Positions 8,317 to 9,609 of a DNA stretch of 21,329 bases are shown here, piece by piece (positions within the stretch are counted from its first letter, which is position 1; each line of letters opens with the position of its first letter). Origin of the DNA: a virus. Taxonomy: Duplodnaviria > Heunggongvirae > Uroviricota > Caudoviricetes. Both the position numbers and the translations under genes were made by a program. The stretch lies in the IMG/VR virus record IMGVR_UViG_3300029610_000212. The stretch is one strand, 5' to 3'. The notes below the pieces were generated by a model that saw nothing but the letters and a program-made list of their open reading frames with translations, searched no databases and was not told the origin of the DNA.

Positions 8317-9609
8317 TTACCAGCCTACAGCAATACCCCCTCCGACTACTGCTCCATCAGTATTATTCCACGAAGACGATGCACGAATATTGGTGTTTTC
8401 ATTAAGTTTATATTGAACACCAACAGCTACTGCATTACCGTTTCTATAGTTACCAACCCCAACGCCGGCACTAAATGTCTGATTATTCACATACGGGATA
8501 TTGGTCATTGCTGCAACAGAAGCAATACCCGCATTAGCTTTTTTAGCATTGGCCTCAATCTTATCATTTAACCTCTTAAATGATGAATTTATCTTACCAT
8601 CAATTTGGTTAAATTTTGTATCAGTATATGCAAATGACTCTTGTTTTGCCGACTGGATGTTCTTATTAATAACGCCGTTATTTTTCGTAACTTCCTGATC
8701 AGTGTATGCCATTGATTCACTTTTGGCATTATTAATATTCTGATTTATCACAGCATTGTTTTTGGTAACTTGCTGATCTGTATATGCCATTGATTCGCTT
8801 TTGGCATTATTGATATTCTGATTTATCACAGCATTATTTTTGGTAACTTGCTGATCTGTATATGCCATTGATTCATTCTTGGCATTACTGATGTTTTGAT
8901 TAATTACAGTATTATTTTTAGCTATCTCATTCCCGGTATAATCTTTCAGCTGCTTAACGTTAACACCATCAGTATCCTCAGTGCCTGCGGCAACATGGGT
9001 TAATTGTCGATTAGTGTTACCCGTCCCAAAAGATACACTATACTCTCTGTCAGTTGTACTTCCCCCGCCGATGGCAACACTATTATTATGTTCAGCTACA
9101 CTCTGTGAGCCAAGTGAGATAGCATTTTCTGCAGTAGATGTAGCCCCTACACCAATAGCTAATGTATCTCCTGCTGTCGCCTGGGCGGAAGAACCAAATG
9201 CAACACTGTTCTCCCCAGTTGCTTTAGAAGCAGCGCCTACACTTGTAGAATTAGCGACTGCCTCACTACCCGCACCATTTGCAATAGCTGAATCACCGTT
9301 TACTTTACTAAATGAACCAATCGCTACCGAGTTATTTCCAACAACATTTGCATTTGCGCCAATAGCTGACGATGAATTACCTTGAGATGAAGAATATGAA
9401 CCAATTGCTGTATTATAGTCCCCTTCTGTTTTTGAAACAGCACCTATTGCTGTAGAAGAAGAACCTGAAACATTTGATGATGCACCAATAGCTGTCGCAT
9501 TACTACCAGTCGCCTGGCTACTATCACCAGCATTATAAGAATTATATGCATAACCATTTGCTGAAACTGCAAATATAACAGAGGCTACGAATAGTTTCTT
9601 CATAAACAT
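8317..9609 (-). CDS. Trimeric autotransporter adhesin, YadA-like (430 aa; resembles prophage-borne Eib-type proteins)
   Basis: Signal peptide MFMKKLFVASVIFAVSANGYA, then YadA-head-type degenerate 14-residue repeats (NATAIGASSNVSGS, SSTAIGAVSKTEGD, NSVAIGSFSKVNGD...), a neck-like segment (NRQLTHVAAGTEDTDGVNVKQLK), a stalk with four 26-aa tandem repeats, and a C-terminal beta-barrel anchor ending ...GGGIAVGW. The gene is visibly AT-rich. Confidence 0.8.
   Translation of the reverse strand: MFMKKLFVASVIFAVSANGYAYNSYNAGDSSQATGSNATAIGASSNVSGSSSTAIGAVSKTEGDYNTAIGSYSSSQGNSSSAIGANANVVGNNSVAIGSFSKVNGDSAIANGAGSEAVANSTSVGAASKATGENSVAFGSSAQATAGDTLAIGVGATSTAENAISLGSQSVAEHNNSVAIGGGSTTDREYSVSFGTGNTNRQLTHVAAGTEDTDGVNVKQLKDYTGNEIAKNNTVINQNISNAKNESMAYTDQQVTKNNAVINQNINNAKSESMAYTDQQVTKNNAVINQNINNAKSESMAYTDQEVTKNNGVINKNIQSAKQESFAYTDTKFNQIDGKINSSFKRLNDKIEANAKKANAGIASVAAMTNIPYVNNQTFSAGVGVGNYRNGNAVAVGVQYKLNENTNIRASSSWNNTDGAVVGGGIAVGW
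8600..8916 (-). repeat. In-frame 78-bp tandem repeats (about 4 copies) encoding the adhesin stalk
   Basis: Near-identical 78-bp units are visible (e.g. 8742-8819 and 8820-8897, with more diverged copies on either side). They encode NNAVINQNINNAKSESMAYTDQQVTK-type 26-residue repeats. Confidence 0.7.

Follow-up and report, generated by a model that had tools for sequence, protein, structure and literature searches.

Does the tandem repeat in the stalk of a YadA-like surface protein change the length of that protein from strain to strain? The question is raised by a stretch of 21,329 nucleotides (nt) of viral DNA (Caudoviricetes; IMG/VR record IMGVR_UViG_3300029610_000212; "the window" hereafter, meaning the whole stretch that was analysed), in which a gene for a putative adhesin of the trimeric autotransporter type contains an array of 78-nt units. 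A preliminary description of the window had proposed that this array is a likely hotspot of length variation, that its units recombine readily, and that it can collapse in short-read assemblies. Comparison with homologous loci on Escherichia coli chromosomes, plasmids, proviruses and metagenome contigs indicates that the array is very probably a genuine variable-number tandem repeat (VNTR) in an alpha-helical stalk, whose whole units are gained and lost by misaligned pairing. The gene, its array with the four units, and the two perfect repeats inside the array are located as follows (ORF, open reading frame; AF2, AlphaFold2).

8317-9609, minus strand: gene for a YadA-like trimeric autotransporter of 430 residues, with putative signal peptide, beta-roll head, helical stalk and four-strand anchor (ORF, Pfam, PDB, AF2, Foldseek)
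8605-8916, minus strand: tandem array of 4 x 78 nt, that is 4 x 26 residues, protein residues 232-335 (Tandem Repeats Finder and in-frame reading)
8839-8916, minus strand: unit 1, head-proximal, A type, present in every allele, encoding NNTVINQNISNAKNESMAYTDQQVTK
8761-8838, minus strand: unit 2, internal chimeric type, 0 to 3 copies depending on the allele, encoding NNAVINQNINNAKSESMAYTDQQVTK
8683-8760, minus strand: unit 3, penultimate, Y type with the C-terminal end ...AYTDQEVTK, present in every allele, encoding NNAVINQNINNAKSESMAYTDQEVTK
8605-8682, minus strand: unit 4, degenerate, last, on the membrane-anchor side, encoding NNGVINKNIQSAKQESFAYTDTKFNQ
8759-8796 and 8837-8874: longest perfect direct repeat of the array in the window, 38 nt (self-comparison)
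8735-8757 and 8813-8835: second perfect repeat run, 23 nt (self-comparison)

Tandem Repeats Finder, the in-frame reading and shuffling experiments agree with the 78-bp in-frame units of 26 residues that had been described at 8600-8916. The program reports a period of 78 at 8678-8919 (3.1 copies, 89% matches, 0 indels, score 379), which is the single strong tandem array of the window and lies within the sole long ORF of its region; this ORF is on the minus strand, a point missing from the preliminary description. Identity at a lag of 78 nt is 0.80 over the array compared to 0.30 +/- 0.04 at other lags; in 2000 codon shuffles, it never rose above 0.494. Because 78 equals 3 x 26, each unit stays in frame. 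The wording "about four near-identical units" holds for three of them, as units 1-3 are 82-91% identical to each other at the DNA level, but not for the fourth, which is degenerate (62-65% DNA identity and 58% protein identity to units 1-3). In the 78 nt beyond unit 4, similarity to the units does not rise above background.

A homologue of the gene at 89-93% identity is present in 29 of 5426 complete E. coli genomes, 24 of which were retrieved. Together with four plasmid, five provirus and five metagenome loci and the window itself this amounts to 39 complete arrays, although some provirus and metagenome entries may duplicate isolates. Units were counted between conserved flanking anchors and in retrieved loci only; the geometry of BLAST tables is unusable for the copy number of partial matches (hits H47 and H49, with 5 and 6 units, respectively, look alike there). 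The counts are distributed as follows.

E. coli chromosomes (24): 3 units, 2; 4 units, 3; 5 units, 18; 6 units, 1
IncF plasmids (4): 3 units, 1; 4 units, 1; 5 units, 2; 6 units, 0
IMG/VR proviruses (5): 3 units, 2; 4 units, 2; 5 units, 1; 6 units, 0
Metagenome contigs (5): 3 units, 2; 4 units, 3; 5 units, 0; 6 units, 0
Window (1): 4 units, 1
All arrays (39): 3 units, 7; 4 units, 10; 5 units, 21; 6 units, 1

The outcome that the preliminary description had named as contrary to its proposal, one copy number in all homologous loci, was thus not found: between 3 and 6 units are present among the 39 arrays, stalk length does differ between strains, and the gene products fall into forms of 402/403, 428-430, 454/455 and approximately 480 residues. 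Most importantly, copy number differs among alleles of three lineages that are otherwise identical. At the uspF locus, the 975 nt of the gene outside the array show 0 mismatches among strains A2, A17 and C41, which have 4, 5 and 3 units, respectively (L001/L002/L003); at the asr locus, STEC309 has 4 and STEC711 has 5 units (L005/L007), again with 0 mismatches in 975 nt; and in the IncF lineage, pRHBSTW-00933_2 has 4 and pRHB07-C17_2 has 5 units (L021/L022), with 0 mismatches in 978 nt. From lineage to lineage, the gene outside the array differs by 3-10%. The asr-type lineage covers the full range of 3 (L034), 4, 5 and 6 units. In alleles other than that of the window, units are up to 100% identical to one another. 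Two features of VNTR surface proteins were thus found, high-identity in-frame repeats in the stalk and copy numbers that differ among closely related alleles.

Could these differences have been produced by collapse or expansion of the repeat during assembly? The warning that short-read assemblies would fail here was well founded, since three short-read metagenome contigs (L035, L036, L037) break off within the array; L035 and L037 derive from the same assembly and overlap in the repeat only, and L036 stops at the boundary between unit 1 and unit 2. In addition, the frame is disrupted in a single-unit allele of Proteus penneri ATCC 33519, which was taken from an assembly at scaffold level, and the sole 6-unit allele (E. 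coli M24FEP, L015) was seen just once. However, arrays of 3, of 4 and of 5 units were each found repeatedly, in independent complete genomes of various countries and hosts and also on plasmids and in proviruses; the genome of JNEC-KY180, with 5 units, is a hybrid Illumina and MinION assembly (PMC13534694); an array of 234-468 nt is spanned by any long read; and the differences between units follow an orderly chimeric pattern rather than a random one. We therefore consider it highly improbable that assembly artefacts explain the copy-number differences.

Several observations nevertheless weigh against recurrent change of the array, particularly in the window. The lineage of the window has a single comparator, L030, which is 99.1% identical over 7539-11703 (4165 nt), shows the same context and encodes an identical protein; it also has 4 units, and variation within this lineage was thus not seen. 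The units of the window resemble one another less (82-91%) than the units of some other alleles do, and its array should hence be somewhat more stable. The near-clonal isolates RM11911/RM13745, GF8/GF75 and GPEC349-628/GPEC1176 share copy number and protein accession within each set, which indicates that, over short times, the locus does not show the hypermutability of simple-sequence repeats. Finally, the unit counts were taken from assembled sequences.

The internal structure of the arrays offers a clue to how copy number changes. The first (A), the penultimate (Y) and the degenerate last unit are fixed in every allele, and it is the internal units that vary from 0 to 3. At sites diagnostic for A and Y, the internal units carry Y bases in their 5' part and A bases in their 3' part in every allele; in the window, the 5' part of unit 2 is mostly unit-3-like and its 3' part unit-1-like. 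The point at which Y switches to A differs by lineage, and the internal units contain lineage variants, namely NESL (uspF), SESM (asr), NESV (tRNA-Ser) and ITNAKNESM (plasmids), which indicates that expansions and contractions arose independently after the lineages had diverged. Chimeric internal units of this kind are what out-of-register recombination or replication slippage is expected to leave behind, and the earlier statement that these repeats recombine gains support from them, as A/Y chimeras fit a register-shifted duplication or an unequal exchange.

A probable course of events is the following. Neighbouring units share perfect runs, which measure 23-38 nt in the window and reach the length of whole units elsewhere and which would permit misaligned pairing; in the window, the 38-nt and 23-nt runs are the candidate substrates for such misalignment. 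Misaligned pairing, during replication slippage or during unequal exchange of sister chromosomes, would then add or remove whole units. A chimeric internal unit would arise from a register-shifted duplication or from an unequal A x Y exchange, and the reverse event would restore the A-Y arrangement exactly. Each step would amount to 26 residues, or about 3.9 nm at approximately 0.15 nm per helical residue, and as the frame would always be kept, the length of the product would change without the gene ever being switched off. Sequence does not discriminate between RecA-independent slippage and RecA-dependent exchange. Judging by short tandem repeats in E. coli generally, units of 78 nt are more likely to change by slippage.

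Alternatively, the variants might be old, stable alleles that were spread by horizontal transfer of the whole cassette, without any recurrent hotspot. The cassette is indeed mobile, as it is found in the myovirus prophage at yagU, at lambdoid prophage ends near uspF/ompN and near tRNA-Ser/hyaA, in an IS-rich islet with asrABC (IS, insertion sequence), and on IncF plasmids, and the identical copy numbers of near-clonal isolates would also fit. Transfer of old alleles does not readily account, however, for differing unit numbers inside each of three to four lineages that are 3-10% apart, with no other substitution in about 975 nt, nor for the lineage-specific bases in the internal units, which point to separate gains and losses after divergence. 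We thus regard this explanation as very unlikely and gain and loss of units by misaligned pairing as the better account of the data.

Tandem repeats in genes for surface proteins can also act as phase-variation switches that turn expression on and off, as in simple-sequence contingency loci. Apart from the fact that a gene for a surface protein contains a repeat, nothing points in this direction. The unit length is a multiple of three, so that the reading frame is kept and length variation rather than on/off switching results; arrays are whole multiples of the unit, with the exception of NWU_4 and NWU_1 (L004, L049), where a 3-nt in-frame insertion encodes an extra methionine in the penultimate unit. 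The frame through the array is intact in every allele, and the two disrupted genes are damaged outside the array: the chicken isolates GPEC349-628 and GPEC1176 (L010, L054) have a frameshift in the part for the head, and there is an IS2 element that overlaps the 3' end of the gene in M24FEP (L015 518-1948). The arithmetic of a 78-nt unit shifts no reading frame; classification as a phase-variation locus was hence rejected, and the probability of such a switch is practically nil. The extra methionine is missing from NWU_3, which originates from the same farm as NWU_4.

Does the array really form part of a stalk, as had been assumed from the sequence? The domain limits in the encoded protein are as follows.

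9028-9537, minus strand: YadA-like head, residues 25-194, with short SxAIG-type beta-strand repeats (Pfam, PDB, AF2, Foldseek)
8506-8958, minus strand: stalk, a predicted continuous alpha-helix, residues 218-368 (AF2)
8326-8487, minus strand: YadA-like membrane anchor, residues 375-428 (Pfam, AF2, Foldseek)

Three Pfam families score above their curated cut-offs, YadA_head PF05658 (72.5 bits, five stretches), YadA_stalk PF05662 (32.2 bits) and YadA_anchor PF03895 (32.1 bits, cut-off 22.7). Sequence searches against the PDB matched the collagen-binding head of YadA (1P9H, E = 1.1e-21) and the heads of BpaC, SadA and BoaA, and for the anchor AtaA and YadA, with a weak match to EibD (2XQH, E = 1.1e-6). 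The AF2 model, which is that of a monomer with a mean predicted local distance difference test score (pLDDT) of 74.7, comprises a beta-rich head, a single uninterrupted helix at residues 218-368, whose block-mean pLDDT is 88-97 across residues 221-310, and four beta-strands within residues 379-428. Foldseek matched this model to BoaA- and YadA-like heads, to EibD (20% identity) and to the anchors of Hia, AtaA and YadA. The N-terminus, MFMKKLFVASVIFAVSANGYA, shows the charged, hydrophobic and small-residue layout of a signal peptide as judged by eye. Both features of type Vc autotransporters, a C-terminal four-strand anchor and head, neck and coiled-coil stalk modules, were thus recovered by Pfam, PDB, AF2 and Foldseek. 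As the repeats occupy residues 232-335, within the predicted helix at 218-368 between head and anchor, they form part of the stalk, and the location originally given for them is supported. The helix presumably forms a trimeric coiled coil, and the label "adhesin" is a putative one based on homology.

When the stalk alone was used as query against the PDB, matches were marginal (E = 0.05-0.13). Unit 4 and the next ~25 residues (QESFAYTDTKFNQIDGKINSSFKRL) align with the YadA stalk fragments 3LT7/3H7X/3H7Z (RESNQYTDHKFHQLDNRLDKL; E 0.08-0.13), a marginal lead which is consistent with the known YxD motif and falls short of statistical proof. Each 26-residue unit thus resembles a duplicate of the stretch with the YxD motif ahead of the anchor. 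In terms of coiled-coil periodicity, 26 residues correspond to 11 + 15 residues, to 7 turns and to 3.71 residues per turn. This periodicity would imply a right-handed supercoil, as with the 15-residue repeats of YadA, and such a supercoil fits the unit of the Proteus orthologues, which consists of the same sequence plus exactly 15 residues, that is 41.

It has to be considered that the units are functional modules, for ligand binding or self-association, and that their number tunes avidity or aggregation and not merely reach. In BadA of Bartonella, repetitive stalk motifs mediate fibronectin binding (PMC9602544), immunoglobulin binding by Eib proteins maps to the stalk and not to the head (PMC13534694), and the protein sequence of the unit is conserved across the lineages compared here. 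The unit reads, however, as a plain coiled coil with a widespread YxD motif, and the stalk-only query of the PDB retrieved no EibD match, nor any other Eib chain, at E <= 10. A modular role of this kind seems rather unlikely to us; it is compatible with instability of the repeat and would alter only the purpose of the variation. Gain and loss of whole units by misaligned pairing would apply in either case.

With respect to known systems, the protein resembles YadA of Yersinia in its lollipop architecture, its similar size, its head (E = 1e-21) and its matching anchor (with 2LME among the structures). It differs from YadA in that overall identity is only about 33%, in that its unit has 26 residues (41 in Proteus), and in that its gene resides on prophages and IncF plasmids. 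The gene for YadA is located on the virulence plasmid pYV, and the stalk repeats of YadA are 15 residues long. Saa of Shiga-toxin-producing E. coli is another trimeric autotransporter whose variants reportedly differ in the number of tandem peptide copies; it is said to share with the gene studied here a mobile-element location in E. coli and variable tandem repeats, and to differ from it in a unit of 37 residues and a location on a megaplasmid.

Variation in repeat number in trimeric autotransporter stalks is already documented, and it is seen here in an uncharacterised mobile family of E. coli and Proteus. In a review, differences in how many in-frame tandem peptide repeats a trimeric autotransporter contains are linked to head exposure and adhesion (PMC9704523). 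For Cha of Haemophilus cryptic genospecies, the effect of repeat number on adhesion has been measured (Sheets & St Geme 2011, as cited in PMC9704523). Cha is likewise a trimeric autotransporter with variable in-frame repeats in its passenger, but it is unrelated in sequence and organism, and adhesion measurements stand behind Cha where comparative sequence evidence stands behind the present gene. Periscope proteins contain similar in-frame DNA repeats in their stalks, which vary the projection of the tip domain and for which repeat recombination is the proposed route (PMC9704523); both the concept and the proposed mechanism are the same here. This class is nevertheless composed of monomeric proteins with individually folding repeat domains, and trimeric autotransporters are explicitly excluded from it (PMC9704523). 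The repeats of the window belong to a single long predicted helix of a protein built like a trimeric autotransporter, and strict membership among the periscope proteins was rejected.

Also among the closest known systems are the Eib, Cla and "Yal" adhesins of Shiga-toxin-producing E. coli that are negative for the locus of enterocyte effacement, described in a 2026 paper (PMC13534694). Like the protein of the window, these E. coli adhesins are trimeric autotransporters of the YadA type and of small size whose genes are mobile between loci. In the loci retrieved here, the gene adjoins prophage tail-fibre genes. JNEC-KY180, one of the genomes of that study, carries the 5-unit homologue L016; variation in repeat number in this gene is not discussed there. 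A saddle is present in EibG and Cla and absent in YadA, Saa and Yal, and the function of Yal is not known (PMC13534694). Membership among the Eib proteins was rejected, given the E value of 1.1e-6 for EibD, the Foldseek identity of 20%, the lack of any Eib match for the stalk at E <= 10, and the predicted helix at 218-368, which no saddle interrupts. The uninterrupted predicted helix fits the saddle-less Yal proteins, whose clades are the likeliest home of the gene family, although membership could not be confirmed.

What might variation in stalk length mean for the bacterium? At about 0.15 nm per residue the predicted helix would measure roughly 19 nm in a 3-unit and 30 nm in a 6-unit protein, and such changes could affect the reach of the protein, exposure of its head, adhesion, and antigenicity or antibody recognition. 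A more far-reaching idea is that stalk length is an adaptive and quickly re-settable trait, with each new host strain, having received the cassette through a prophage, an IS-mediated move or an IncF plasmid, selecting between 3 and 6 units (~4 nm per step). We think that this is probably not the case. If it were, the number of units would lift the head just clear of the O-antigen or capsule layer of the host or, as another option, the favoured number would be one at which antibody or phage no longer reaches the head, and the repeat would enable one cassette, Proteus-like in origin, to function on many kinds of cell surface. Irrespective of this, annotation and typing schemes should expect several length forms of the gene and breakage or collapse of the array in short-read assemblies, due to which screens that score its presence by a coverage threshold may overlook it or give it a wrong size. 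With this gene, variation in stalk length can be seen clearly in nature in a trimeric autotransporter which moves among prophages, IS islets and conjugative plasmids in E. coli and E. albertii, and the natural allele series of 3 to 6 units would be a ready tool for relating stalk length to adhesion, aggregation and serum resistance.

The features that surround the gene in the window are the following.

7667-8230, plus strand: C-terminal fragment of an IS3-family transposase with rve domains, between yagU and the cassette (domain search)
8265-9798: mobile cassette common to homologous loci at other sites (blastn against retrieved loci)
10526-12900, minus strand: tail-fibre assembly gene (10526-11110; PHROGs phrog_105, 1.5e-89) and tail-fibre gene (11110-12900; phrog_295, 1.5e-195)

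Core chromosome of E. coli, with ecpB-E, ykgJ and yagU, makes up the left third of the window and is ~98% identical to thousands of genomes. Further along on the minus strand are baseplate, tape-measure, tail-chaperone and sheath genes of a prophage with a contractile tail (myovirus type), and the adhesin gene is thus cargo at the very end of this prophage, just past its tail-fibre genes. In IMG/VR proviruses, the gene is found at most ~250 bp from the contig end. The G+C content of the cassette is 38% compared to 50-57% in its flanks, forming a low-G+C stretch within 8000-11000 of the window. Elsewhere, the cassette is located at the ends of lambdoid prophages adjoining uspF/ompN; beside tail-fibre genes, near an integrase or tRNA-Ser/hyaA; in an IS-rich islet with an omptin gene on one side and asrABC on the other; and on conjugative IncF plasmids of E. 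coli and E. albertii, there with 76-82% protein identity. In the asr-locus and IncF-plasmid settings, too, the cassette is flanked by IS fragments. Similarity to the asr-locus alleles runs on to position 10499 (blastn), and the region concerned, 9610-10499 (~900 nt upstream of the gene), is non-coding, AT-rich, ~80% identical and common to the asr-locus alleles only. On pRHBSTW-00933_2 (L021 9434-11251), the cassette lies ~3 kb from genes for an autotransporter O-heptosyltransferase and a large classical autotransporter, so that this plasmid carries a cluster of surface-adhesin genes. In the window, the tail-fibre ORF at 11110-12900 begins ~30 codons before the PHROG profile match (residue 32) and overlaps the baseplate gene at 12800-13363 by 100 nt; because of this early start and overlap, the true start of the tail-fibre gene is probably an internal methionine (MAEYYS...).

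Among GTDB species representatives, relatives of the gene were found in Proteus columbae and P. penneri only. Because the nearest relatives outside Escherichia are from Proteus and the G+C content is low, the data suggest that the cassette may have originated in a Proteus-like group. In the Proteus orthologues, unit number varies at the corresponding site: four of the 41-residue units are present in P. columbae (L019 3001-4383) and in P0001. The P. penneri ATCC 33519 locus mentioned above (L020 3401-4015) has one chimeric unit, and this single-unit array may be collapsed. In a search of 5.8 billion proteins, close E. coli homologues were not found among the 8000 candidates sharing most words that were scored, probably because the head repeats swamped the word index, and the best of those 8000 candidates was a P. 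penneri protein with 55% identity over 59% of the query. An exact look-up of eight allele proteins in the same collection found none of them. In a phage collection no phage with the whole gene was found, and short anchor matches were obtained in two Proteus phages. These phages, Privateer (NC_048861.1, L018 2133-2717, lytic) and Vb_PmiP-P59, encode a 194-residue "tail protein" with a YadA-like anchor that shows 73-74% DNA identity to 8413-8533 of the window. The respective phage gene is situated among small early-type genes, near a "decoy of host sigma70" and TerC/TerD-like genes, and not among the tail genes.

One further feature is found in the region upstream of the adhesin gene.

9681-9709, minus strand: promoter-like sequence TTGAAA-N17-TAGAAT, ~70 nt upstream of the start codon (consensus scan)

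In an upstream alignment, these promoter-like hexamers are kept in the chromosomal and plasmid allele lineages, which is suggestive, though only suggestive, of a promoter. A 14-bp tandem repeat with 2.6 copies is located at 9735-9773 and shows no obvious conservation in the upstream alignment of the other lineages. At approximately 9750-9760, ~50 nt upstream of the putative -35 hexamer, there is a poly-T tract that varies between 6 and 8 T among the uspF alleles and the window.

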